IMG/VR virus record: IMGVR_UViG_3300045988_086792
Source: a virus
Direction: 5' to 3' (one strand)
Length of the DNA: 51,914 nt
Shown: positions 5,515 to 51,914 of the stretch, in pieces
Numbering within the stretch: position 1 is the stretch's first letter
Layout: the number at the start of each line of letters is the position of its first letter
Made by a program: the position numbers and the translations under genes
The notes under the pieces: generated by a model
The model's database searches: none
The model's input: only the letters and a program-made list of their open reading frames with translations
Told to the model about the DNA's origin: nothing

Positions 5515-5748
5515 ATGGCAGGTATCACAAAAGAGCAGGCGGAAGCCAAGCTGCAAACATGGATGGAAGCCGAAGAGAAAATTGCCAGCGGACAAGGCTA
5601 CTCCATCGGCGACCGCCGCCTGACCCGCGCTGACCTCTATACGGTTCGCGGTGAAATCGAATACTGGAACAACAAGGTAAAAGAGCTGGAAGCGGCAGAA
5701 CAGAGCGGGCGCAACAGGATGTACCGCTTTGTGATACGCGACATCTGA
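5515..5748 (+). CDS. Head-tail joining protein, lambda gpW-like
   Basis: 77 aa, between terminase and portal as in lambda. AKLQTWMEAEEKIASGQGYSIGDRRLTRADL pattern. Confidence 0.6.
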   Translation: MAGITKEQAEAKLQTWMEAEEKIASGQGYSIGDRRLTRADLYTVRGEIEYWNNKVKELEAAEQSGRNRMYRFVIRDI

Positions 5749-5759
5749 CGGAGGGCGAC

Positions 5760-7379
5760 ATGGCAAAAATGAACCTCATAGACAGGGCGGTTGCTGTCGT
5801 CTCCCCGGAACGGGGCTTGCGCCGCGCGGCGGCAAGACAGAGTCTTGAATTTATCAATTCTGGCTACGGAAACTATGGCGCTTCCACAACCAAGAAATCT
5901 ATGCGCGGCTGGCAGTTTGCCGGTGGCGATGCAAAAAGCGACATCGAAGATAACCTCAAGACTCTGCGGGAGCGGAGTCGTGACGCTTACATGGGCGTTC
6001 CCATTGCGACCGGCGCACTGAAGACCATGCGGACAAACGTGGTGGCGGGCGGTCTGACCCCATCACCGCAGATCGACGCAGAGTTTCTGGGCATGACACC
6101 AGAGCAGGCAAATACCCTGCAAATGCAGATTCTCCGGGAATTTTCGCTGTGGGCGGACAGCCCGCTGTGTGACGCTGACCGGGTGGACAACTTCTATAAA
6201 CTCCAGCAGCTTGCGTTCCTTGCCTACATGATGAACGGAGACGCATTTGCGGTTTTGCCCATGCGGCACAACATCGGCCAGCCGTATGACTTGCGGGTGC
6301 AGCTCATCGAAGCCGACCGGGTGTGCAGCCCAGATCAGGATGACCGGCTGTTCCCGTGCGTTGTGGATGACCATGCGGTTTCCAGCATTGTGCAGGGCAT
6401 CGAAACGGATGACACGGGCATGGTGGTCGCTTACTGGATTTGCAACCAGCACCCGCTTTCGAGCATGGCAGCGATGCCGGAACCGATGAAGTGGCAGCGG
6501 GTGGAAGCCTACGGCGAAACGACAGGACGGCGGAACATTCTGCACATCATGAACCGGGAACGCTCCGGCCAGCGGCGCGGTGTTCCGATGCTTGCACCGG
6601 TGCTGGAAGCCCTCAAACAGTTGGGCAGATATACAGATGCAGAGATCACGGCAGCGGTCATCAGCGCGATGTTCACGGTTTTCATTTCCAAGAAAACGCC
6701 GTCCATTGGCCGTCCGCTGGGCGAAGTGATCCCGCCCAACCAGCAGATCGACGCACAGGACCGGGGAACCATTGAGCTGGCTGCCGGTGCGATCATCGAC
6801 CTTGACGAAAACGAGGAAGTGCAGTTCGCAGACCCGAAGCACCCCAATACCGGCTTTGATGCGTTCTCGACGGCCATCATCCGGCAGATTGCGGCGGCGC
6901 TGGAAATTCCGAGTGAGGTGCTCATGAAGCAGTTCACGGCCAGTTACAGTGCCGCGCGTGGTGCGCTGAATGAATTTTGGCGAACCTGTGACATGATGCG
7001 AAGCTGGTTCGTGGATGACTTCTGCCAGCCCATCTATGAAGAGTGGATGACGGAAGCAGTCGCTACCGGGCGCATCAATGCGCCGGGATTCCTCACAGAC
7101 CCGGCTGTTAAGAAAGCCTATACTTCCTGCACTTGGAATGGGCCAGCACGAACAAACCTAAACCCCGTGCAGGAAGTGGACGCTGCGGTGAAGCGCGTGG
7201 GCGCGGGATTCTCGACCGCAGATCAGGAAACCGCAACGATGAACGGCGGCAGCTATGCGATGAACATTCGCCAGCGGCTTATCGAGGCGAAGATGAAAAA
7301 GGAGGTGGACGACATTGCAAATGGCGAAACGGTACAGAATCGTAAATCAGACGGCGACCCTACCCAAAGTGAAAAATGA
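5760..7379 (+). CDS. Portal protein, lambda gpB family
   Basis: 539 aa. Assigned from synteny (terminase-W-portal-protease) and overall sequence character. Confidence 0.85.
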   Translation: MAKMNLIDRAVAVVSPERGLRRAAARQSLEFINSGYGNYGASTTKKSMRGWQFAGGDAKSDIEDNLKTLRERSRDAYMGVPIATGALKTMRTNVVAGGLTPSPQIDAEFLGMTPEQANTLQMQILREFSLWADSPLCDADRVDNFYKLQQLAFLAYMMNGDAFAVLPMRHNIGQPYDLRVQLIEADRVCSPDQDDRLFPCVVDDHAVSSIVQGIETDDTGMVVAYWICNQHPLSSMAAMPEPMKWQRVEAYGETTGRRNILHIMNRERSGQRRGVPMLAPVLEALKQLGRYTDAEITAAVISAMFTVFISKKTPSIGRPLGEVIPPNQQIDAQDRGTIELAAGAIIDLDENEEVQFADPKHPNTGFDAFSTAIIRQIAAALEIPSEVLMKQFTASYSAARGALNEFWRTCDMMRSWFVDDFCQPIYEEWMTEAVATGRINAPGFLTDPAVKKAYTSCTWNGPARTNLNPVQEVDAAVKRVGAGFSTADQETATMNGGSYAMNIRQRLIEAKMKKEVDDIANGETVQNRKSDGDPTQSEK

Positions 7380-21819: not shown

Positions 21820-23310
21820 ATGTTTTTTCCGAAACTGATCCTTACGGATGCGGGCAGGGCGCTGATCGTAAAAGCGCTGAACGGAACCGCAATCAATTTT
21901 ACGAAGTTTGCGCTGGGCGATGGCACGGCTCCGAAAGAGCCGCGAAAGCTGAAAGCGCTGGTCCATCTGGCAGCCAATATGCAGATCAACAGCATTGAGC
22001 TTTCCGCAAACTGCGCAGTGCTGGAATCGACCTATACCAACAGTGGCTTGAAGTCAAAGCTGGTTGCGCGGGAGCTTGGCATCTTTGCCACAGACCCGGA
22101 TGAGGGAGAAATCCTCTATGCGTATGCCAATGCTGGAAGTGAAGCATCGGTCGTGCCGCCCGAAAGCGGCGATATGACTGTGCAGGAAACATTCCACATG
22201 GTTGTGACCGTGGGAGATGCAACGACCGTCACGGCAACATTGGGCGAGTATTCTGGTTATGCCAGCAAGGCAGACCTACAAAGCCATATTGACGACAAGA
22301 ATAACCCGCACAATGTCACGGCAGAGCAAATCGGCCTTGGCAATGTCCCGAATGTGACCCCGGCAAACCAGCAGCCGGTGTTCTCAAATGACTACATTAT
22401 GAAGTCGGATGGCTCCTATGATGTGCAGAACATCGCTTCCGGCGAAAAGATGGGAAATATCCTGCGCAAAATCCGCACAGCGGTTGCGGCATTTGTCGCA
22501 CACCTTTCTGCAAAGAATCCGCACAACATCTCAGCGGCGGATATTTCGGCGGCGGCGGAAGACCATAAGCACAGCGCGAACGATGTGACGACTGGAATTT
22601 TCCCTGTTTCCCGTGGCGGCACAGGTGCGGCGACGGCTACCGAAGCGAGAGAAAAACTTGGCGTTGCTGCAAAGGATCACAAGCACAATGCAAGCGATAT
22701 TCAGGGCGGAATGATTCCGGTTGCGAACGGCGGCACGGGTGCAAACAATGCTGCGTCGGCGTGCAGTAATCTTGGTGCGATGCGTACAGCGGGCGGAACA
22801 TTCAGTGGAACCGTTTATTTCGGCAGCAGCACATATTACGTCAACGCTTCCGGTGTGGCAAATTTCGCCAAGGCATATGGCGCAATGTACAACGATTACG
22901 CGGAGTTTTTTCCACGCGGCGGAAAAACTTCCCCCGGTGACATCGTTGCACTGGACGTGAGCAGCCAGAAAGAAAGATATGTCCGGGCAGATGCGGAAAG
23001 CCGTATGGTCGTCGGCATCCATTCGGATGAGTACGCTATGCTGATTGGCGGCGAGTCCGCGTTGGATGGCGAGGATTATGTAGAAAAGAACATCAAAAAT
23101 TATATCCCTGTTGCGCTGGCAGGCCGCGTTATGACGCGCGTGACCGGGCCGGTTCGCACCGGGGATATTATTATTCCGTCTGAATTTCCGGGTGTTGGCC
23201 GCGCCGCGATTGACGGGGACGCGCTTTCTTATTGGAACATCGTCGGATATGCTGTTGAGGGTGACAACCGCACAGATGAACGCAAGCTGCGCGTTCGAGT
23301 CGGGAGGTGA
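21820..23310 (+). CDS. Tail fibre protein (P2 gpH-like N-terminus)
   Basis: 496 aa. N-terminus FPKLILTDAGRALIVKALNGTAINFTKFALGDG. Repeated HKH(S/N)A.D...GGTGA units. Confidence 0.8.
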   Translation: MFFPKLILTDAGRALIVKALNGTAINFTKFALGDGTAPKEPRKLKALVHLAANMQINSIELSANCAVLESTYTNSGLKSKLVARELGIFATDPDEGEILYAYANAGSEASVVPPESGDMTVQETFHMVVTVGDATTVTATLGEYSGYASKADLQSHIDDKNNPHNVTAEQIGLGNVPNVTPANQQPVFSNDYIMKSDGSYDVQNIASGEKMGNILRKIRTAVAAFVAHLSAKNPHNISAADISAAAEDHKHSANDVTTGIFPVSRGGTGAATATEAREKLGVAAKDHKHNASDIQGGMIPVANGGTGANNAASACSNLGAMRTAGGTFSGTVYFGSSTYYVNASGVANFAKAYGAMYNDYAEFFPRGGKTSPGDIVALDVSSQKERYVRADAESRMVVGIHSDEYAMLIGGESALDGEDYVEKNIKNYIPVALAGRVMTRVTGPVRTGDIIIPSEFPGVGRAAIDGDALSYWNIVGYAVEGDNRTDERKLRVRVGR

Positions 23311-23316
23311 TGGAGG

Positions 23317-24186
23317 ATGGCAGTAAGCAGAGAAAATCTTATTTCTCCGCAGGATTATATCACGCTGAAAGAGCTGGTCAAGAAAGAAATTCAGCGCAGG
23401 AGCAATGCGGCAAGCGTTGGTTCCATGTCGGCCTATGCCGGGTCGAACTACGACTATTCCGTAACGCCTGCATCGAGAACCCAGAAGATCACAGACGAGC
23501 ATATCCAGAAGATCACGAAGCCGCTGGATGCGGTGACGGGCGGAAGCCTGACCCCGGCAGTACACGGGATGGTACTGGCAGAAGCGCTGAACTCGGCAGC
23601 GACCATGGTTGCTAACCTGTCGAAGAAAAGTGAAACATCTTCCGACACGGGATGCAAGGCGCAATGTTCGGGTCTGTGCTTTAGCAGCTGCTTTTCATCC
23701 TGCTCCGGTTGCACTGGAACTTGTACGGGAAGCTGTACTTCAAACTGCAAGGACTCCTGCACGGTGGATTGCACGGGGAGCTGCACCGGAACGTGCACTG
23801 GAACTTGTACGGGTAGTTGCTCTGACAGTTGTTCCGGTTGCGGCGGGTCTTGTTCCAATGACTGCACAGGAAGCTGTAAAGGGAATTGTCTGAACGGATG
23901 CAGTACGACATGTAAAAATGGCTGTTCAGGAAGCTGCAAGGGAACCTGCGATAGTACCTGTTCGGGTTCCTGCTCTGGCGACTGTTCCGGCTGCGGTGGC
24001 TCCTGCTCGAACGACTGTTCTGGCAGTTGCTCCGGCGACTGCACAGACGACTGCGAAACTTGCTATGCGGGGTGCGCCCGTGGCTGTGCGACTGGATGTC
24101 GAGATACTTGCTCGGTACAGTGCGACGATGAGGCGGCGTGTCATGGAACTTGCTCAGGAAATTGCTCTGGCGGATTTATGTGGTAA
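23317..24186 (+). CDS. Cys-rich CXXX-repeat protein (putative radical-SAM substrate; possibly structural)
   Basis: 289 aa. After residue 112 I count 44 Cys, almost all with a 4-residue period (CTGSCTGTCTGTCTGSCSDSC...). SD GGGAGGTG. Confidence 0.8.
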   Translation: MAVSRENLISPQDYITLKELVKKEIQRRSNAASVGSMSAYAGSNYDYSVTPASRTQKITDEHIQKITKPLDAVTGGSLTPAVHGMVLAEALNSAATMVANLSKKSETSSDTGCKAQCSGLCFSSCFSSCSGCTGTCTGSCTSNCKDSCTVDCTGSCTGTCTGTCTGSCSDSCSGCGGSCSNDCTGSCKGNCLNGCSTTCKNGCSGSCKGTCDSTCSGSCSGDCSGCGGSCSNDCSGSCSGDCTDDCETCYAGCARGCATGCRDTCSVQCDDEAACHGTCSGNCSGGFMW

Positions 24187-24794: not shown

Positions 24795-25083
24795 AAAAAC
24801 TTTCATGCTGGCTGAAAGAGAGAACCTTTTGGTCGAGCGGCTGAATTACATCTTTGAGAGCAACCGCGCCATGGTAGCCATCTTGGCGCGGGAACTGGCC
24901 GGTGCGGAGAACACAACAGCGAAAGAAATGTTGCTGGAAGAAAAAGAAAGCTGCAAGCGGGCATTTCTTGAACTGCGTGTGGCGCAGGATGCTGTGCTGG
25001 ATGCAAAATTTTCCGGTCATCGCCCGGATAATATCCAGTTCAAATTCGACTTTCCCAACCGGGAGGTGACGTGCCAGTGGTGA
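24784..25083 (+). CDS. Hypothetical helical protein of the CXXX/rSAM cassette
   Basis: 99 aa. Overlaps the upstream stop by 11 nt and the rSAM start. Confidence 0.5.
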   Translation: MENEKTFMLAERENLLVERLNYIFESNRAMVAILARELAGAENTTAKEMLLEEKESCKRAFLELRVAQDAVLDAKFSGHRPDNIQFKFDFPNREVTCQW

Positions 25084-26411
25084 AGAAAAGCAAGATGTTC
25101 CGTCGCGGGGAGGACTACACGAATTTTGTACAGCGAATGTACCCCAAAACGGAAAATGGCGGCGTGGCCTGCCGGAACATTACATTCCAGATCACCGATG
25201 ACTGCAACATGAGATGCTCGTACTGCTATGAGCACCACAAAGCCTGCGGTGCAATGAGCTTGAAAACGGGCAAGCAGGTGGTGGACTACCTGCTGAACCT
25301 GTATGAACAGAACGACTCCGATTTCATCAATCAGCATACGAAAGGCGTTGTGTTGGACTTCATCGGCGGAGAGCCGCTGCTGGAAGCGGCGTTGATCGAG
25401 AGAATCTGTGATTACTGGTTTGCAGAGTGCTGGCGGCGCAAAATCCCGCTGGGGCCGTACACCCGCATTTCCTTTGCGACAAACGGCCAGTTGTGGTTCT
25501 CCCCGGCGGCGCAGCACCTTTTCCACAAGTACCATGATCTCATGTCGGTCACGGTGAGCATCGACGGCATCAAGGAGCTGCACGACAAGTACCGGCTGGA
25601 TGTGAACGGTATCGGCAGCTTCGACAAAGCATGGGCGGCGTTTCAGGATGGCAAGAAGTACGGCTGGCTGAACAGCAAGATGACGTTTGTGCCAGACAGT
25701 TTCAGTTACATCTACCCCAGCATCAAGATGATGGCAGAGCAGGGCTGCAAGGAAATCCATTGCAACTATGCACATGAGCCGGAGTACACGGAGGCTGACG
25801 CGGCTGCACTGTACCGGGAGCTGAAACGTGTGGCGGATTACCTCATCGGCGAAGCACCAGATGTCTGGGTGAGCATTCTGGGAGAACAGATCGGCAACCC
25901 GCACCCGGAAGACAAGAACTGGTGCGGCGGTACGGGTGCGATGTTGTCTTTCGCACCGGACGGAAAGGCGTATCCGTGCATCCGGTACGCACCAATCTCC
26001 GTCGGCAAAGAACTGGCCGCGCCGATGTGCCTTGGCAACTGCCGGGACGGCCTTTATACCACGGAGCAGCAGCGGAAGACCAAAGAAATGCTGGACGCGA
26101 TCACACTCACCACGCAGTCCACACAGGAATGTATCGACTGCCCGGTGGCGACCGGCTGTTCTTGGTGTTCCGGCTTCAACTATGAGGTCTACGGAACGCC
26201 CAATAAGCGCGTAACAAGAATCTGCAAGGCGCACAAGGGCCGCGTGCTGGCATCGTGCTACTTCTACAACCTGCGCAGCATCAAGTTGAGCGATGCAGAG
26301 CCGAAGAAAATCAACCTGCCCCGCGAAGAGGTTGAGCGGCTGATCGGAAAGCCGGAAGCGGATGCGCTGTTTGCTCTTGAAAAGGAGGCGGCGGAGCAAT
26401 GGGAATGGTAA
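25077..26411 (+). CDS. Radical SAM enzyme with C-terminal SPASM domain (peptide/protein maturase, anSME-like)
   Basis: CNMRCSYC (CxxxCxxC, nt 25203-25226). GGEPLL. SPASM-type C-x12-G-x4-C and CIDCPVATGCSWC. The start could be 25071, 25077 or 25095. Confidence 0.85.
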   Translation: MVKKSKMFRRGEDYTNFVQRMYPKTENGGVACRNITFQITDDCNMRCSYCYEHHKACGAMSLKTGKQVVDYLLNLYEQNDSDFINQHTKGVVLDFIGGEPLLEAALIERICDYWFAECWRRKIPLGPYTRISFATNGQLWFSPAAQHLFHKYHDLMSVTVSIDGIKELHDKYRLDVNGIGSFDKAWAAFQDGKKYGWLNSKMTFVPDSFSYIYPSIKMMAEQGCKEIHCNYAHEPEYTEADAAALYRELKRVADYLIGEAPDVWVSILGEQIGNPHPEDKNWCGGTGAMLSFAPDGKAYPCIRYAPISVGKELAAPMCLGNCRDGLYTTEQQRKTKEMLDAITLTTQSTQECIDCPVATGCSWCSGFNYEVYGTPNKRVTRICKAHKGRVLASCYFYNLRSIKLSDAEPKKINLPREEVERLIGKPEADALFALEKEAAEQWEW

Positions 26412-26659
26412 AACTGCCCGAAAAGGAACTGGCAACGGCATTCGCGGCGGCAGACTACATTCTGATCGTGCAGAAACGCACTGACGGAAAGCTGGACATC
26501 CGCCGTGCTACGCCGGAGCAGGTGGCAAAGGTGGTCGGTGACACGCTGGAAATCCAGAAGATCAAGGAAAACCAGAACAATGTAAAGCTGACCGCTACCA
26601 CCGATGCGCAGGGCGTTGTGACGCTTTCGCTTGGAGGTAGGACCGCATGGAAAACGTGA
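26399..26659 (+). CDS. Hypothetical fibre-module protein
   Basis: 86 aa. SD AAAGGAGG. Overlaps the rSAM stop. Confidence 0.5.
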   Translation: MGMVKLPEKELATAFAAADYILIVQKRTDGKLDIRRATPEQVAKVVGDTLEIQKIKENQNNVKLTATTDAQGVVTLSLGGRTAWKT

Positions 26660-26889
26660 TTCGCACAAAGTATGTCCGGGTTGACGGCGTACTGTACCAG
26701 CTTGTTGATGGAGAAGTACCGGAATGGGCGAAAGAAGAAGTCCCGGATGCCACCTTACTGCAAGAGGGCAAGGCGGCGGATGCCAAGAAAACCGGACAGG
26801 AAATCCAAAAACTGAAAGACCGACCGCATTTTTTCTACGATGAAGAGGGATACCTTACTTTCGACGATGGACGGGAGGAAGAACAATGA
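26647..26889 (+). CDS. Hypothetical fibre-associated protein
   Basis: 80 aa. DATLLQEGKAADAKKTGQEIQKLKD resembles motifs seen in fibre proteins of Firmicutes phages. Confidence 0.5.
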   Translation: MENVIRTKYVRVDGVLYQLVDGEVPEWAKEEVPDATLLQEGKAADAKKTGQEIQKLKDRPHFFYDEEGYLTFDDGREEEQ

Positions 26890-28625
26890 ATACTCACATG
26901 GCATCGGATGAATCCTTGATTAAGATTTTCAACGCTGTGTCTGGCTCCGCGCTGTCTGCCGCCGGTGACGGCAGAACCGCCGTACTGGCAACGGGCAATG
27001 TGGATGCAATCGACGGCTTCTACAACATGATGGCGAAAAAGGCAACCACGCAGAAAGAGATGAACGCACTGTTCATCGACTGGTGGACGGCGAACTGGGA
27101 CCCGACTTTGAGCACCTACAACGGGATGCTGGAACGCTGGTTCGGCACAGTCCTGAATGACAACCGTGTGCATGGCGTGAAGTTCCCGCTGTTCAGCACG
27201 TCCAATACGGCAATCGGCGAGCTGACCGATGACAGCGTTGGTCTGGCCTGCTCTCCTTCTACGGCAACCACGGCCAGCGTGGACGATTTCGCCGCCCTGC
27301 CGCAGTTCTGGTGCGTCGAAGTTGCGGCAGAGAAGAACGCAGACGGCAGCCACACCATTTACGCCTGCCAGTACATCGACGATGACGATGTGGTGCGTGG
27401 CTCGAACCATCTGGTGTGGGTGCTTCAGAAGAACACCTTTACCCGTGAGCGCAACGAGAACGGCTACCGCATTTTCAAGATGCGCTGCAACCCCTCGGCG
27501 GGCTATGAACAGTGGCCGCAGGGTACGGACCGCACCGGAAAGGTCTATCCGTATATCGCCAACCCCAAATATTTTGCCGGTATGCAGGATGACGGCAAAA
27601 TCGGCGGACACACCGGCCTTGCCCCGGTCAACTATACATCGCACACCAAGGGCGTGCAGCTCTGGCGGCAGCGCGGTCCTCAGTATGCGGGCGCATCTGG
27701 CCGCACCCTGAAATGGCAGCTCCGCATGATCTGGCTGAAATATGCCCGTAAGGGTAACTCCGGTACGATTGAGGGTTGCACCTCTTACAACTATCAGTAC
27801 CGCGCAGCATTCAGCGCGGAGAGCGTGAACTACTTCCCGCTGACCGCTGCACAGGCGGCGAATCTGCTGGTTGGTTCGTGGGTCGCAATCGGCAGCCACA
27901 ACAAAGACACGACCGACCGAAACGATGCCAGTCTGCACGACATCCTGACCGAAGCGCAGATCACCCGCATTGAGGACATCGCAGTGGATGATGTGACCTA
28001 CAAGGCCATCTATGTGGACAGCGGTGACGCAACGTGGGATGTGGTGAAGGATCAGTCCATGATCTCCACCATGCCCTACGGCAGCGGCTACAACGATACC
28101 GTGCTGGGCAATGACGGCAGCCGCACCAACTACACCAACGGCAAGGAACCCGGCCTGATCCAGAAGACGGAGTTCCAGAACGGTGCATATCTGATCGTGG
28201 CGGACGAGCTGTGGAAGTGGGACAAAGACGGCGACGGCAACTATACGTTCGACGTTTACACCTGCCACGACCAGACGAAGATCACCACGGACGGCACTAT
28301 TTCGGCGGACTATACCAAGTGCGAAGACCTGACCCTGCGCTTTGCGGATGGTACGCCGAACGCATGGCAGTGTATCGAGGATACTGCCATCAGCGGTGAC
28401 CCGGCGGTGCTGTGGCCTGCTGCTGTTTCAAACCGCGCTGGCAGTGGTACGGGCGTTAAGGCTGGCTTCTACGTCCATCCGGCGGCGTCCGGTGTCCGCG
28501 CGGCTTGGCGGTGCTGCGCCTTGGCCGACGGCGGCTACGCGTCTTTGGCGGCGGCGCCCTCGGGCAGCTGGGTCGGTTACGCGAACTGGCACGGCGGGGT
28601 CGGTGTGCCTGATCTCGCTGGGTAA
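26886..28625 (+). CDS. DGR target (variable) protein, putative receptor-binding protein
   Basis: 579 aa. The last 55 codons contain the VR (GFYVHPAASGVRAAWRCCALADGGYASLAAAPSGSWVGYANWHGGVGV). Confidence 0.85.
   Translation: MNTHMASDESLIKIFNAVSGSALSAAGDGRTAVLATGNVDAIDGFYNMMAKKATTQKEMNALFIDWWTANWDPTLSTYNGMLERWFGTVLNDNRVHGVKFPLFSTSNTAIGELTDDSVGLACSPSTATTASVDDFAALPQFWCVEVAAEKNADGSHTIYACQYIDDDDVVRGSNHLVWVLQKNTFTRERNENGYRIFKMRCNPSAGYEQWPQGTDRTGKVYPYIANPKYFAGMQDDGKIGGHTGLAPVNYTSHTKGVQLWRQRGPQYAGASGRTLKWQLRMIWLKYARKGNSGTIEGCTSYNYQYRAAFSAESVNYFPLTAAQAANLLVGSWVAIGSHNKDTTDRNDASLHDILTEAQITRIEDIAVDDVTYKAIYVDSGDATWDVVKDQSMISTMPYGSGYNDTVLGNDGSRTNYTNGKEPGLIQKTEFQNGAYLIVADELWKWDKDGDGNYTFDVYTCHDQTKITTDGTISADYTKCEDLTLRFADGTPNAWQCIEDTAISGDPAVLWPAAVSNRAGSGTGVKAGFYVHPAASGVRAAWRCCALADGGYASLAAAPSGSWVGYANWHGGVGVPDLAG
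28459..28608 (+). repeat. DGR variable region (VR)
   Basis: 150-nt alignment to 28717-28866 at offset 258. There are 15 differences, every one at a TR adenine. Confidence 0.9.
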
Positions 28626-28640
28626 AGACGGGGTGAATTG

Positions 28641-28656
28641 CCCGGATACTTCCGGG
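28641..28656 (+). promoter_or_regulatory. Hairpin downstream of the VR (candidate DGR target-recognition stem-loop)
   Basis: CCCGGA-TACT-TCCGGG, a 6-bp stem with a 4-nt loop, 32 nt after the VR/TR homology ends. Confidence 0.45.
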
Positions 28657-28660
28657 CAAG

Positions 28661-28681
28661 AGGGGCAGTCAGCCCCTTTTT
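28661..28681 (+). terminator. Intrinsic terminator after the DGR target gene
   Basis: AGGGGC-AGTCA-GCCCCT followed by TTTTT. Confidence 0.65.
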
Positions 28682-28716
28682 GACGATATAGAGATTTTGG
28701 GATGTATGGTGTCCAC

Positions 28717-28866
28717 AGGCTGGCTTCTACGTCAATCCGGCAGCGTCCGGTGTCCGCGCGGCTTGGCGGTGCTGCAACTTGAACAACGGCGGCAACGCGT
28801 CTTTGGCGGCGGCGAACTCGAACAACTGGGTCGGTAACGCGAACTGGAACGGCGGGGTCGGTGTGC
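28717..28866 (+). repeat. DGR template repeat (TR)
   Basis: Non-coding copy of the VR with 25 adenines and 11 AAY codons in the VR frame. 125/125 non-A positions are identical to the VR. Confidence 0.9.
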
Positions 28867-29068
28867 AACTGGTTCAAAAAATCATCATTCATTGCATCAT
28901 ATATTCCACGCTTATGTGCGAAAATTTCTTGAAACCAGCATCACGGCGCTGCGTCCGCAGGAAAGGGCGGGTCCATCCGTGGCGGCAGGACAAGGAACCT
29001 GCTGGCGGCTAGTAGCATAGGCCGAAAGGCTGAACCCGAAAGCCGTTGAAGAACCAGATGATTTTTAT

Positions 29069-30304
29069 ATGAAAACTTATTGTAAACCGAAAGATGTTGA
29101 CATTGAGGATACCAATTTCAACATGGAAGCGGTGCATTGTGCATTCGGAAATGGAAAGCTCCGGCGGCGGGATTTCAGAACGGTTTTGACAAAGACCGGG
29201 AAAATCTCGGAACCGGAGCTGTTTTATGAGCGGAAAGAGCACAAGTGCCACAAGATCATTGATGCCATTGACGCGGTGGCTGAACAGGAAACGCAGAAGA
29301 TTCGGGACGAATGCCTGAACCTGAAACCGGTCCGGCAGTTCAAACGCATTGACGGAACCAAGATGAAAGAGCGAAATCTCTGTCAGGAGTCGCCGGAACA
29401 GCAGGTGCATGAATACATCCTCGTTCATGCACTTCAACCGCTGTTCCGCGCAAAGTTCCTGCCGGCCCAATTCGGGAGCATCCCGGGAAAAGGACAAGTG
29501 GCTGGAACCAGACTGATCGAGCGGATCATCCGAAAGAGAATCCTCGGAAAACTGGATGCGGTAAAAGGCGACGTGCATCATGCGTACCCATCCACCACGA
29601 CGCTCTGCGTCATAACGCTGCTGAAACGCGACGTCGGGAAAAACAAAAAGCTGATCTGGTATGCCGGGGCGGTGACAGAAAACTACCCGGACGGCGTTCT
29701 TCTGATTGGCGGATATTTCTCAACATGGGCGTTCAACTACATTATGAGCTACGTCCTGCGCTATCTGATGTCTCTGGTGCAGGTGCGCCGGGGCAGCGGG
29801 TCTAAGCTGGTGCGGGAAATCGTGTGCTATGCAGATGATTTTGTGCTTATCGGGCACGCTTCGCAGCTCATGAAAGCAATGAAGAAAGCAACGAGGTGGG
29901 CAAAGTCTGCGCTGGGGCTTGAGATCAAACGGGCATGGCAGGAAGTGCGGTTTGCATCTTTCGAGAAAGAAAAACAGGTGAAAGCCGCGCGGGCGGCGGG
30001 CAGCCATTACCGGACACCGGCGTTGGACATGATGGGATTTGCGGTACGCCGCACCTATACCATCGTCCGCAAAGGAGTATTCCGCAGAATCCGGCGGCAG
30101 CTGCTCCGCGCCGCTCGTGATCTTGCAACGCTTGGATTTGTTCCGCATTGGAGAGCATCCAAACTGACGGCTTACAATGGTTGGTTTACAAACAGCGACA
30201 GTACAAACCTTGAGGAAAAGTACGATGTCGAGAAAATCATGCGGGCGGCGCGATGGAGCGTTGCCCGCTGGTCTATGATCCAGAACAGGAGGAAAGCAGC
30301 ATGA
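29069..30304 (+). CDS. DGR reverse transcriptase
   Basis: 411 aa. YADDFVLIG (motif C). LLIGGYFSTWAFNY (IGxxxS-type motif). It starts 202 nt after the TR. Confidence 0.85.
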   Translation: MKTYCKPKDVDIEDTNFNMEAVHCAFGNGKLRRRDFRTVLTKTGKISEPELFYERKEHKCHKIIDAIDAVAEQETQKIRDECLNLKPVRQFKRIDGTKMKERNLCQESPEQQVHEYILVHALQPLFRAKFLPAQFGSIPGKGQVAGTRLIERIIRKRILGKLDAVKGDVHHAYPSTTTLCVITLLKRDVGKNKKLIWYAGAVTENYPDGVLLIGGYFSTWAFNYIMSYVLRYLMSLVQVRRGSGSKLVREIVCYADDFVLIGHASQLMKAMKKATRWAKSALGLEIKRAWQEVRFASFEKEKQVKAARAAGSHYRTPALDMMGFAVRRTYTIVRKGVFRRIRRQLLRAARDLATLGFVPHWRASKLTAYNGWFTNSDSTNLEEKYDVEKIMRAARWSVARWSMIQNRRKAA

Positions 30305-30687
30305 AAGAAATCTATTCGTTCCAGCCGGAAGCGGTCGAGGTGTTCCGCGTAGGTGACGATACCGACTTGATCCTGCGCAAGAACATCGAGAAGCAGCAGA
30401 TGACCGACGATGAGGGTAAGGCGTATACCGTTTACGCCTGCGATGAACGGCAGGTGCGCTACGCCGGGGTGCTGACCGCCGAAGAGGTCCAGAAGAACTT
30501 CGACAAGTGGTGGGACTATGCGCCGCCCACGCCCGTGCCCGTGCCGGAGAAAAAGAAGTTGGAAGACCGGGTGAAAGAGCTGGAAGCGCAGAGTACCACC
30601 ATGGCAGACCAGCTCACCAGTACCCAGATGGCACTTTGCGATGTGTACGAACAGGTGCTGAGCGCAACCAGCACCGCCACAGAATGA
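30301..30687 (+). CDS. Hypothetical protein (XkdW-position)
   Basis: 128 aa from ATG 30301 (ATGA overlap with the RT stop, SD CAGGAGGA). The C-terminus is coiled-coil. Confidence 0.55.
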   Translation: MKEIYSFQPEAVEVFRVGDDTDLILRKNIEKQQMTDDEGKAYTVYACDERQVRYAGVLTAEEVQKNFDKWWDYAPPTPVPVPEKKKLEDRVKELEAQSTTMADQLTSTQMALCDVYEQVLSATSTATE

Positions 30688-30704
30688 GCACGGAGGTATG
30701 AACT

Positions 30705-30830
30705 ATGAGCACTGACTACATGGCGACGGTCTATGCAGACCTGATCCGCAAGGGCAAGAAGACTCTGGCGCAGGTGCCGAAGAGCTTGCAGAAAAAGGTG
30801 AAAGCCCTGCTGGCGGAGGATAACAAGTGA
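30705..30830 (+). CDS. Small CD1375-like phage protein, copy 1
   Basis: 41 aa: MSTDYMATVYADLIRKGKKTLAQVPKSLQKKVKALLAEDNK. SD GGAGG 7 nt upstream. Below the ORF-track size cutoff. Confidence 0.55.
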   Translation: MSTDYMATVYADLIRKGKKTLAQVPKSLQKKVKALLAEDNK

Positions 30831-30883
30831 GTATCCTTCGCGAGCTGATGCTTAAAATCTTGCTGAGAAAGGAGGTGGACGTG

Positions 30884-31000
30884 ATGGCAGTTGTCTATGC
30901 TACCCTTATCATCAAGGGCAGGAAGACCATTGATCAGGTTCCGGCAATCATCCGGGATGAGGTCAAGCAGATTCTGAAGGACCTTGAGGTTGAGGTCTGA
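30884..31000 (+). CDS. Small CD1375-like phage protein, copy 2
   Basis: 38 aa: MAVVYATLIIKGRKTIDQVPAIIRDEVKQILKDLEVEV, a paralogue of copy 1. SD AAGGAGGTGG. Confidence 0.55.
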   Translation: MAVVYATLIIKGRKTIDQVPAIIRDEVKQILKDLEVEV

Positions 31001-31010
31001 GGAAAGAGGC

Positions 31011-31043
31011 GGGGTGCGGCGGGAGCTGCACCCCATTTTATTT
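31011..31043 (+). terminator. Intrinsic terminator before the lysis cassette
   Basis: GGGGTGC-(10 nt)-GCACCCC followed by ATTTTATTT. Confidence 0.65.
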
Positions 31044-31059
31044 GAAAGGACGTGATCGT

Positions 31060-31482
31060 ATGGCACTGAACGTATATTCCCTTGAACGGGACGGCGAAAA
31101 AAGCCTGTCTAAAAATTTCAAGGTGAGGGAGTTCCGCTGCAAGGATGGATCTGATCCGATCTTCATTGACAGCGAGTTGGTGGAAATTTTGCAGAAAGTC
31201 CGGGATCACTTCGGCTCGCCGGTGCACATCAACAGTGCATATCGGACTGCCGCTTACAATCTGAGCAAGAAGGTGGGCGGCGCAAAGTTCAGCCAGCACC
31301 AGTATGGCAAGGCAGCAGACATCTACATCCAAGGCATCCTCATCACGAAGCTGGCCGAGTATGTGGAGACGCTGATGCCCAACAAAGGCGGCATTGGTAT
31401 CTATCCCATCAAGCCCGGTGTGCGGGACTGTGCCTTTGTCCATGTGGATGTCAGGGCGGCCAAGAGCCGCTGGAGAGGCTAA
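31060..31482 (+). CDS. Endolysin, zinc peptidase M15-type (D-Ala-D-Ala carboxypeptidase-like)
   Basis: FKVREFRCKDG...INSAYRTAAYN...GGAKFSQHQYGKAADI...FVHVDV carries the H-x6-D...H metal ligands. ATG 31060 is preferred over TTG 31042. Confidence 0.75.
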   Translation: MALNVYSLERDGEKSLSKNFKVREFRCKDGSDPIFIDSELVEILQKVRDHFGSPVHINSAYRTAAYNLSKKVGGAKFSQHQYGKAADIYIQGILITKLAEYVETLMPNKGGIGIYPIKPGVRDCAFVHVDVRAAKSRWRG

Positions 31483-31506: not shown

Positions 31507-31902
31507 ATGACTGAGATTCTGAAATCCTTTTTGATGATCTTCCCTGAATGGCTTGCAGCCATTCTTGTGATGGTTGGCGTGGTCGTTGCCGCGCTGGGTC
31601 TGGTCCGTCTGGGCTACGGTCTTTTCGTGGCGAAGACGGTGTACAAGTGGATCGTCAACGCAGAGGAGAAGTTCGGCACGGGTGCAGGCGCGGAGAAGAA
31701 AGCACACGTTATTGCGGTGCTGCGCGGCTACACCCCGGACTGGCTGGACTGGGCAATCAACGAGAAAACGCTGGACTGGATCGTGCAGTTTGTTTTCAAC
31801 ATGACCAAGAAAAGACTCGAAGAGTACATGGCAAAGAAATCCAAAGAAACCGCAACTGTGGCCCATTTCGGTAAGGTGGGGGAGGACAAGTGGAATGACT
31901 AA
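31507..31902 (+). CDS. Putative holin (LL-H-like)
   Basis: 131 aa with an N-terminal hydrophobic segment (WLAAILVMVGVVVAALGLV), adjacent to the endolysin. Confidence 0.5.
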   Translation: MTEILKSFLMIFPEWLAAILVMVGVVVAALGLVRLGYGLFVAKTVYKWIVNAEEKFGTGAGAEKKAHVIAVLRGYTPDWLDWAINEKTLDWIVQFVFNMTKKRLEEYMAKKSKETATVAHFGKVGEDKWND

Positions 31903-32212
31903 TGAGGAGCTGGAACATCGCTTGACGGATGTTGAAAACAGAAGCAAGAGCAATACCCGCCGACTCGACGGCATGGAAAAGCTGACCGATGCGGTAAATG
32001 GCATGAACACCAACATCAAGCTGACAATCCAGCAACTCGAAACCACAAACAAGAACCTCGAAAATGTAACGGCTCAGAATAAAAAGCAGGACGACCGCCT
32101 GACCGCGTTAGAAAAAGCCCCCGGAGCTTTCGGAAACAAGCTCTGGTGGGCTGTCATTGCGGCCTTTATCTCTGGCTTCGTAGCCTATGAGCTGGCTGCA
32201 CTCCTGCACTGA
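31895..32212 (+). CDS. xhlA: XhlA-like lysis-associated membrane protein
   Basis: 105 aa. N-terminal coiled coil plus a C-terminal TM (LWWAVIAAFISGFVAYELAALL). Confidence 0.5.
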   Translation: MTNEELEHRLTDVENRSKSNTRRLDGMEKLTDAVNGMNTNIKLTIQQLETTNKNLENVTAQNKKQDDRLTALEKAPGAFGNKLWWAVIAAFISGFVAYELAALLH

Positions 32213-51769: not shown

Positions 51770-51843
51770 GCATGACGGAATGCAATCTACTTTTTGCACA
51801 AAAACATGACGGAATGCTTGTGCAATTTTGCATGGCGGAATGC
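51748..51843 (+). promoter_or_regulatory. Operator/iteron array: four direct 13-bp repeats CATG(A/G)CGGAATGC
   Basis: Copies at 51748-60, 51771-83, 51805-17 and 51831-43. The last two recur at 32-44 and 58-70 in the overlap. They sit within or next to both divergent promoters. Confidence 0.8.
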
Positions 51844-51914
51844 CGCTTGATTTGCTATAATATAATAAACGCGCGCGAAAAGAGGTGATATGATGCCGAT
51901 TTCGGAAAAAAAGA
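51774..51914. repeat. Terminal redundancy, right copy (identical to 1-141)
   Basis: Same 141 nt as the window start. It re-includes the rightward promoter and the first codons of the 117..338 gene. Confidence 0.95.

Follow-up and report, generated by a model that had tools for sequence, protein, structure and literature searches.

Evidence for a recently active diversity-generating retroelement without a detected Avd gene in the tail-fibre module of a contractile-tailed phage

The diversity-generating retroelement (DGR) of Bordetella phage BPP-1 (mtd - avd - TR - brt) is the prototype of these systems: a template repeat (TR) just upstream of a reverse transcriptase (RT) gene is transferred, with adenine-specific changes, to a variable repeat (VR) at the 3' end of a tail-fibre/receptor-binding gene. 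The accessory variability determinant, Avd, is present in ~74% of DGRs and is essential in the prototype. Here we describe a DGR in IMG/VR virus record IMGVR_UViG_3300045988_086792, a stretch of 51,914 nucleotides that we refer to as the window. Its layout is target/VR - TR - RT with no Avd gene, and we are highly confident that it is functional and recently active. The features that define a DGR are present: adenine-specific differences between TR and VR, an adjacent DGR-like RT, a VR in the coding 3' end of a gene, and natural hypervariability. An earlier note on this DNA had proposed adenine-specific mutagenesis of the target C terminus, and the TR/VR signature, the variability among relatives, and the DGR-like RT all support that proposal. 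The note also held that DGRs are already known in gut phages and that the type is not new. We agree; because DGRs are common in gut phages, the existence of one here is unsurprising.

In the Bordetella DGR RNA, a duplex of ~13 bp between upstream and downstream sequences, together with a stem-loop and adenosines, forms the "cPRT Stop," which positions priming and ends complementary DNA (cDNA) synthesis, and an Avd-binding stem-loop lies just past the TR (Handa et al., bioRxiv 10.1101/2023.10.23.563531). The survey in that study was limited to DGRs with Avd. Accessory-free "Architecture A" makes up 29% of 372 DGRs, with one lineage wholly without avd, and Avd-independent homing has been proposed (Wu et al. 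2018, PMC5758913). The same work describes CH1, an acidic accessory candidate (pI 4.7, 160-169 aa) found only in avd-less DGRs and known from Bacteroides-type elements (PMC5758913). In the DGRs of Faecalibacterium prausnitzii phages, the TR and VR are 100-135 bp long, Avd was detected in only two, and some targets are of unknown function (Cornuault et al. 2018, PMC5883640).

Like the BPP-1 DGR, the window locus has a VR at the 3' end of a putative tail-fibre/receptor-binding gene, a TR just upstream of the RT gene with adenine-specific TR-to-VR transfer, a GC-rich homology end followed downstream of the VR by a GC-rich hairpin with a 4-nt loop, and a TR-flanking RNA duplex followed by a stem-loop and adenosines, as in the cPRT Stop. 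It differs in having no avd, either in the 108 nt between VR and TR or elsewhere; in the 27 nt that leave no apparent room for the 9-bp Avd-binding stem-loop; in an RT of 411 aa, with extra N- and C-terminal segments, versus 328 aa; in a T-W where the BPP-1 RT has SQ; and in a target that is not detectably Mtd-like. Compared by description, the core TR-RT without an avd, HRDC, or MSL gene resembles "Architecture A1" (target, TR-RT) of Wu et al., and the acidic open reading frame (ORF) at 30301-30687 (pI 4.5) is reminiscent of CH1, although its size (115-128 aa in its family) and its hosts (Clostridia phages) differ. The F. prausnitzii phages are likewise temperate gut Bacillota phages, but only the FP_Epona RT matches the window RT, at 24% identity. 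A megablast search of 26886-30700 against deposited phages gave no match, and in the collection searched the closest deposited phage sequences reach 31% identity for the RT and 61% for the target, the latter on an unannotated contig. The lack of Avd, the longer RT without SQ, and a target outside known families place the locus in the recognised Avd-less class. What is new here is the covariation-supported RNA flanking the TR and the conserved acidic ORF; Avd-less DGRs are already known.

Adenine-specific differences between the repeats

A repeat finder run over positions 26000-31000 returned one direct repeat of 150 nt (28459-28608 and 28717-28866) at a spacing of 258 and 90% identity, with a gap of 108 nt between the copies. 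Base-by-base comparison shows that the copies align without gaps at this offset and reproduces the count given in the earlier note. The TR consists of 25 adenines and 125 non-adenine positions; all of the latter (125/125) are identical in the VR, whereas 15 of the 25 adenines are changed, so that every mismatch (15/15) lies at a TR adenine (A>G 7, A>C 6, A>T 2). The probability of 15 of 15 mismatches landing on 25 adenines among 150 positions is 2.0e-14 (hypergeometric). In the reading frame of the target, the TR contains 11 AAY codons, and 10 of the 11 are altered in the VR, with exactly the residue changes listed before (N to H, A, A, D, Y, P, G, S, Y, and H); one extra A>G change is silent (GCA>GCG). 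The repertoire of ~10^13 put forward in the note also stands, at about 1e13 combinations from the 11 Asn (AAY) codons and one Tyr (TAC) codon.

The homology ends sharply on both sides, at 28458/28716 and 28609/28867. The VR encodes residues 525 to 575 of the 579-residue target, whereas the TR is intergenic and non-coding, and no second VR was found in the whole genome. The coordinates of the locus are collected in Table 1. A GC-rich end of the homology resembling an initiation of mutagenic homing (IMH) sequence was located as previously described; relatives in a second subclade carry another version, GGCGGCGCTGGCGTGC, which is again shared by their own VR and TR. The hairpin that follows the VR was described as having a 6-bp stem and a 4-nt loop, of which the loop is right and the stem is actually 9 bp. 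Its stem is kept across 9 loci and its loop is variable, and we regard it as a candidate target-recognition hairpin or cruciform.

Table 1. Features of the DGR locus and their positions in the window
Feature	Position	Strand	Remarks
DGR target gene, 579 aa, last structural gene of the tail-fibre module	26886..28625	+	phrog_17147, function unknown, 1.7e-82
VR	28459..28608	+	15 differences from TR, all at TR adenines; hypervariable among relatives only there
GC-rich 3' end of VR/TR homology (IMH-like), GGCGGGGTCGGTGTGC	28593..28608	+	same in VR and TR
Hairpin 29 nt past VR, TTGCCCGGA-TACT-TCCGGGCAA, 9-bp stem, 4-nt loop	28638..28659	+	DNA fold
Terminator-like hairpin and T-run past target gene	28661..28681	+	DNA fold; not called by consensus terminator scan
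TR-flanking duplex, 5' strand, TGGGATGTATGGTGT	28698..28712	+	ends 5 nt before TR
TR	28717..28866	+	25 adenines, 11 AAY codons in VR frame; nearly invariant in 10 related loci
CTGGTT directly 3' of TR	28869..28874	+	complementary to AACCAG at 29052-29057, just before RT start
TR-flanking duplex, 3' strand, GCATCATATATTCCA	28894..28908	+	15 uninterrupted bp with 28698-28712
Short hairpin (CGC-TTATGT-GCG; 28909-28920), then GAAAA(TT) run	28909..28925	+	2/3 pairs with compensatory changes
Four spacer helices: 28941-46/28977-82, 28983-89/28998-29004, 29005-10/29041-46, 29020-23/29028-31	28941..29046	+	RNAalifold
Reverse transcriptase, 411 aa, YADDFV, IGGYFSTW	29069..30304	+	phrog_1423 "reverse transcriptase," 6e-42
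Small acidic ORF (ORF128), 128 aa, pI 4.5	30301..30687	+	start overlaps RT stop (ATGA); candidate accessory factor

Related loci were collected by an exact-pattern scan with the TR adenines masked and by a protein-guided RT scan. Together these gave 13 IMG/VR contigs, with both repeats present at 8 loci. At seven of the eight, the mismatches falling at TR adenines number 17/17, 17/17, 18/19, 15/15, 14/14, 15/16, and 11/11. The TRs of the 8 loci are 2-7 nt from the window TR (0-7 nt among themselves), and every VR is different. Non-adenine changes in a TR reappear in the VR of the same locus (AAC to AAT and GCG to GCT at locus L010, and the alternative 3' end mentioned above), which is the expectation from unidirectional TR-to-VR transfer.

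Protein comparison gives a similar picture. We compared 12 full-length members, from independent assemblies, of the 90% cluster to which the window target belongs (445 members). Each of the 11 AAY sites carries 5-8 residues, and Y529 (TAC) carries three (Y, F, and C). Among the other 566 positions 30 are variable, with at most 3 alleles each, and all of the VRs are distinct (12/12). Finding 12 distinct VRs on proteins that differ little elsewhere points to turnover faster than ordinary divergence. Polymorphism confined to adenine sites, for which the earlier note had suggested looking, is seen in this way among the assemblies of relatives (8 DNA loci, 12 proteins).

The pattern extends to a wider family. 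The viral loci from a profile-guided scan number 80 (RT identity 51-97%), and a scan of genomes added 12 prophage loci. VR/TR pairs were found in 41/56 loci of the viral set with enough upstream DNA (NCBI prophage locus L022 included) and in 9/11 of the genome prophage loci scanned; in both sets the mismatches lie almost all at TR adenines. The cassette recurs in 50 more distant loci or prophages with RTs of 51-59% identity. In all pairs the VR and TR lie upstream of the RT, with a VR-to-TR offset of 255-437 nt and 126-233 nt from the TR end to the RT start, and the repeats are 124-159 nt long except for one 76-nt pair (L088). The prophage hosts are gut Clostridia, comprising Lachnospiraceae, Oscillospiraceae, Lawsonibacter, and the cultured Coprococcus intestinihominis CLA-AA-H190.

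Could differences restricted to adenines have arisen on an ordinary duplication by chance, selection, or recombination, without any reverse transcription? Nothing speaks for this except that the support is sequence-based. The chance probability is about 2e-14 at one locus, and the pattern appears independently in more than 50 loci. Further, of the two copies it is the non-coding TR that is conserved, and adenine is changed to all three other bases. We consider such an origin extremely improbable.

Reverse transcriptase and the RNA around the template repeat

The earlier note placed an RT with the motif YADDFV 202 nt after the TR, and the ORF at 29069-30304, which starts at that distance, bears this out. 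Its homologues number more than 550, at 405-430 aa, and none is named. YADD and I-G-G are invariant across 20 RT homologues. The window sequence IGGYFSTW corresponds to a family consensus IGGYLPTW (IGGY[LF][PS]xW), in which S is not conserved and Q is absent. The signature [LIV]GxxxSQ in motif 4 is a commonly cited hallmark of DGR RTs, not a strict requirement; the window RT lacks its SQ. The C-terminal 92 residues have a pI of 11.6.

A profile built from 20 homologues finds 8ub7_A (328 aa, with nine related entries) as the best solved structure, at E 2.6e-6, and group-II-like RTs next in the same search, at E 0.06-0.11. The aligned stretch of 8ub7_A reads P180-IGSLTSQ, with Ile at 181. As this residue fits Ile181 of Bordetella bRT, we tentatively take 8ub7_A to be that enzyme, from the cryo-electron microscopy series of Handa et al. 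On this assumption, the BPP-1 RT is the nearest solved relative of the window RT. Judged by these comparisons, the RT appears to be related to DGR RTs and not to group II, retron, or defence RTs.

The earlier note had named an RT of the group II intron or retron type as the finding that would speak against a DGR. A rival reading along these lines assigns the RT to a group II intron, a retron, or a defence system and regards the repeat as an unrelated duplication. It would be in keeping with a Pfam RVT_1 score of 22 bits, below the gathering cutoff of 29.6, and with a group II maturase model as the only NCBIfam match of the RT. That match scores 25.8 bits, far under its cutoff of 300, and the bRT-like chain comes first in the structure search (2.6e-6 versus 0.06). 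The retron, Abi, and DRT models of PADLOC do not match the RT, and Rfam finds no group II or retron RNA in 28400-29200 (two chance-level matches only). Moreover, across 50 loci the repeat is always 126-233 nt upstream of the RT and always shows adenine-specific differences. An origin of this kind is hardly conceivable.

The spacer of ~200 nt between TR and RT stays at about 98-100% identity in comparisons of loci whose RT proteins have diverged to 87%, and its RNA appears to be under strong purifying selection. RNAalifold applied to 11 divergent spacers yields a predicted structure of 31 pairs, and compensatory changes occur at 17 of these. In this structure 96.4% of cells are paired versus 79.3% in shuffles (0/500 reach it), and only 29-44% are paired when the partners are slid by 1-3 columns. 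The minimum free energy fold of the whole TR region is no more stable than shuffles (z = +0.9), so the case for RNA structure rests on covariation and not on energy. No Rfam family matches the TR/spacer RNA.

The TR is flanked by a duplex of 15 bp, and an equivalent helix of 13-17 bp is present in 21/22 loci, where the sequences differ and covary (for example, GGGATGTATGGTG/CATCATATATTCC, GGGATATACGGTGC/GCACCGTATATTCC, and GGGATGCACGATGC/GCATCGTGCATTCC). The 3' strand of the duplex follows the TR after only 27 nt, a distance that seems to leave no room for an Avd-binding stem-loop, in agreement with the absence of Avd. The GAAAA run after the short hairpin that follows is invariant in all aligned spacers. 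CTGGTT, at the 3' side of the TR, and its complement AACCAG are both kept in long-spacer relatives; in locus L062 both change together (TGATTTGT / ACAAATCA, by inspection).

The RT start (29050-29071, …GAAGAACCAGATGATTTTTATATG) has no recognisable Shine-Dalgarno sequence, and several relatives have AAGGAGG there. AACCAG occupies the Shine-Dalgarno position, which raises the possibility of a coupling between RNA structure and RT translation.

Target protein and genome context

The target is, as the earlier note had it, a 579-aa protein of the fibre module with the VR at its C terminus (ORF 26886-28625). It has no match in Pfam. N-terminal collagen or BppU_N segments are often present in its homologues, and its C-terminal 180 residues recur as the terminal module on proteins of 200-1700 aa, which form 162 clusters at 50% identity. 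This terminal position supports a distal fibre or receptor-binding role, which we consider probable for the target.

Structural comparison of the target gives few leads. A full-length profile finds nothing among PDB sequences, and a profile of the C-terminal domain finds one chance-level match there (E 0.58). Against Pfam, the same domain gives chance-level matches only, at E 0.014 or weaker, with no FGE, DUF1566, or DUF6273. A full-length AlphaFold2 model (25 homologues) proved to be unusable, with a mean predicted local distance difference test (pLDDT) score of 49.8 and a C terminus below 50. A model of the C-terminal 180 residues built with 29 diverse homologues reaches pLDDT 73 and a predicted template modeling (TM) score (pTM) of 0.65 and is almost all beta, with the VR segment below 50. 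Foldseek retrieves no PDB match for it, the best E being 1.2 and TM not exceeding 0.22. In BFVD its only matches are H7BV43, which is a homologue, and two weak ones, to a crAss-like tail fibre (E 0.12) and to a TvpA-annotated viral protein (E 0.46, TM 0.38). With a mostly beta model, no match to a C-type lectin, and a pLDDT below 50 over the VR segment, the C-type-lectin fold raised in the note, which along with the Ig fold is the scaffold expected under a DGR variable region, is neither confirmed nor excluded.

Some related loci have no VR/TR pair. In L019 (~5530-5800), L021 (5700-6000), and L031 (3150-3500), the target body runs straight into an intact TR, followed by the spacer. Fusions of this type, from which the VR and the VR-TR interval are missing, occur in about a quarter of related contigs and also in 616-622-aa Logan proteins of the target cluster (P0121, P0250, P0251, and P0253 are among the fused entries). 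Most likely they are assembly artefacts in which heterogeneity of the VR led the VR/TR repeat to collapse; recombination between VR and TR is a less likely source. A TR-less variant, considered for L019, L021, and L031, was rejected, as the target ORF there is fused onto the TR in the manner of a VR/TR collapse. Collapsed entries put false "target" C termini into databases.

The window carries an exact 141-nt direct terminal repeat (1-141 and 51774-51914), which indicates a complete genome, either circular or with terminal redundancy, of 51,773 bp. The phage is of the contractile-tail type. Its genes run in the order terminase, portal, capsid, sheath, tape measure, P2 GpU, gp25-like, and baseplate-wedge proteins, then a tail-fibre protein (21820-23310), followed by a radical SAM cassette, the target, TR, RT, ORF128, an M15 endolysin, and holin-like genes. 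The lysis cassette directly past the DGR comprises the M15 peptidase endolysin (31042-31482, + strand), a membrane protein that is weakly holin-like (31507-31902, +), and a coiled-coil protein with a C-terminal transmembrane segment (31895-32212, +).

The radical SAM cassette begins with a 289-aa ORF (23317-24186, +) that has a CxxxC repeat array of ~170 aa at its end, with 44 Cys (for example, CTGTCTGSCTSNCKDSCTVDCTGSC). Two genes downstream, 25071-26411 (+) encodes a radical SAM/SPASM enzyme whose nearest family is TIGR04115 ("CXXX-repeat target" peptide maturases), with a score of 312 bits that falls slightly short of the cutoff, 350. The two look like a substrate/maturase pair embedded in the tail-fibre module. 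The cassette is kept in close relatives (L010-L019) and is absent from the L022 prophage and from more distant DGR relatives. We rejected it as a part of the DGR on two grounds: the cassette comes with a substrate gene of its own, the CxxxC-repeat one, and distant DGR relatives lack it. The earlier note saw in it a second route for altering the receptor-binding end of the virion; this is speculation, the likely substrate being the separate CxxxC-repeat protein (23317-24186) and not the DGR target.

Activity and the absence of Avd

In the mechanism that we propose, an RNA spanning ~28690-29068 would be transcribed that contains the TR and the structured 3' spacer of ~200 nt. The TR would be bracketed by the 15-bp duplex, with the short hairpin and A-run next. 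The RT encoded downstream would bind this RNA and copy the TR to cDNA, misincorporating opposite adenines, and the cDNA would replace the VR at the 3' end of the target gene, guided by the GC-rich homology end and the 9-bp hairpin. In the outcome, the 11 Asn (AAY) codons and the one Tyr (TAC) codon would be randomised within the last 55 residues of the target, and the randomised tip would presumably shift receptor specificity. Four parts of this scheme are inferred: priming in cis, the stop of synthesis at the flanking duplex, the way in which homing proceeds, and the binding of a receptor by the target.

Avd sequences are poorly conserved, and a very divergent one may escape a Pfam or NCBIfam search. 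With these libraries we found no Avd or four-helix bundle in the RT-flanking ORFs. Nor was an Avd found among 26 small ORFs across the genome, a search made with Pfam alone (NCBIfam was limited to the RT-flanking and radical SAM-region ORFs), and none is called in the L022 prophage. The earlier note had termed the DGR complete. That term calls for a qualification, as no Avd gene was found anywhere in the genome, an architecture that is already known.

Several points weigh against a functional, recently active element. Besides the low RVT_1 score and the missing SQ of the RT, there is the absence of Avd, with which the Bordetella mechanism cannot apply unchanged. A consensus scan found no promoter for the TR RNA. 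The C-terminal domain of the target has no sequence match in Pfam or the PDB, and its model is unlike any C-type-lectin structure. The evidence for activity is a comparison between assemblies and not of reads from one population. Finally, the eighth related locus, L020 (2777-3181), has 8 TR/VR mismatches at adenines and 6 at other positions, which suggests a decaying copy or sequencing or assembly errors; decay does occur, then, among relatives.

The last points bear on whether the locus is a fossil, a formerly active DGR that no longer homes in this genome and whose VR differences are inherited. For the window genome itself, activity is read from other genomes and not from reads; a relative with 6 non-adenine mismatches shows decay in the family; and neither Avd nor a promoter was found. 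Against this, the RT ORF is unbroken and keeps every residue that is invariant in its family, and the TR retains all 25 adenines with zero non-adenine mismatches to the VR. Twelve genomes of one 90% target cluster each have a different VR, and the spacer RNA is, by its conservation, apparently under strong purifying selection. We give a fossil only a small chance and favour a functional, recently active DGR.

An ORF128 homologue, sharing an N-terminal domain of ~75 aa, lies directly after the RT in 90/91 related loci. One also follows the RT in L113, and there is a weak match after a 27%-identical RT in MT836575.1. The family is 115-128 aa long and occurs in phages of Clostridia. Pfam, PDB, and PADLOC searches for relatives of ORF128 gave nothing meaningful, and no homologue outside DGR cassettes turned up, although no search suited to find one was made. 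ORF128 could be a lineage-specific accessory factor; alternatively, it may be just a syntenic gene of the tail module.

A more tentative reading, possible in our view though rather doubtful, is that this RT family, which is widespread among phages and prophages of gut Clostridia, represents a distinct, Avd-independent mode of DGR, with RT, RNA, and acidic protein replacing Avd and its stem-loop, and with the target domain as a new scaffold. The substitutes for Avd may include the enlarged basic RT (411 aa, C-terminal pI 11.6), the lineage-specific structured RNA without an Avd-binding stem-loop, and the small acidic post-RT protein of the 90/91 loci. The C-terminal domain of the target may be a structurally undescribed scaffold for massive variation.

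The value of the locus is that of a clean, well-supported example of the Avd-less class; the Avd-dependent Bordetella element has so far supplied all of the biochemistry and structures. Its RT family offers a compact cassette, a covariation-backed RNA like the cPRT Stop, a candidate partner protein, and hundreds of natural variants, among them a prophage in the cultured Coprococcus intestinihominis CLA-AA-H190. With all of these, Avd-independent mutagenic retrohoming becomes directly testable. The targets add a large family of phage tail-tip domains that is absent from Pfam and tolerant of randomisation at ~12 positions.

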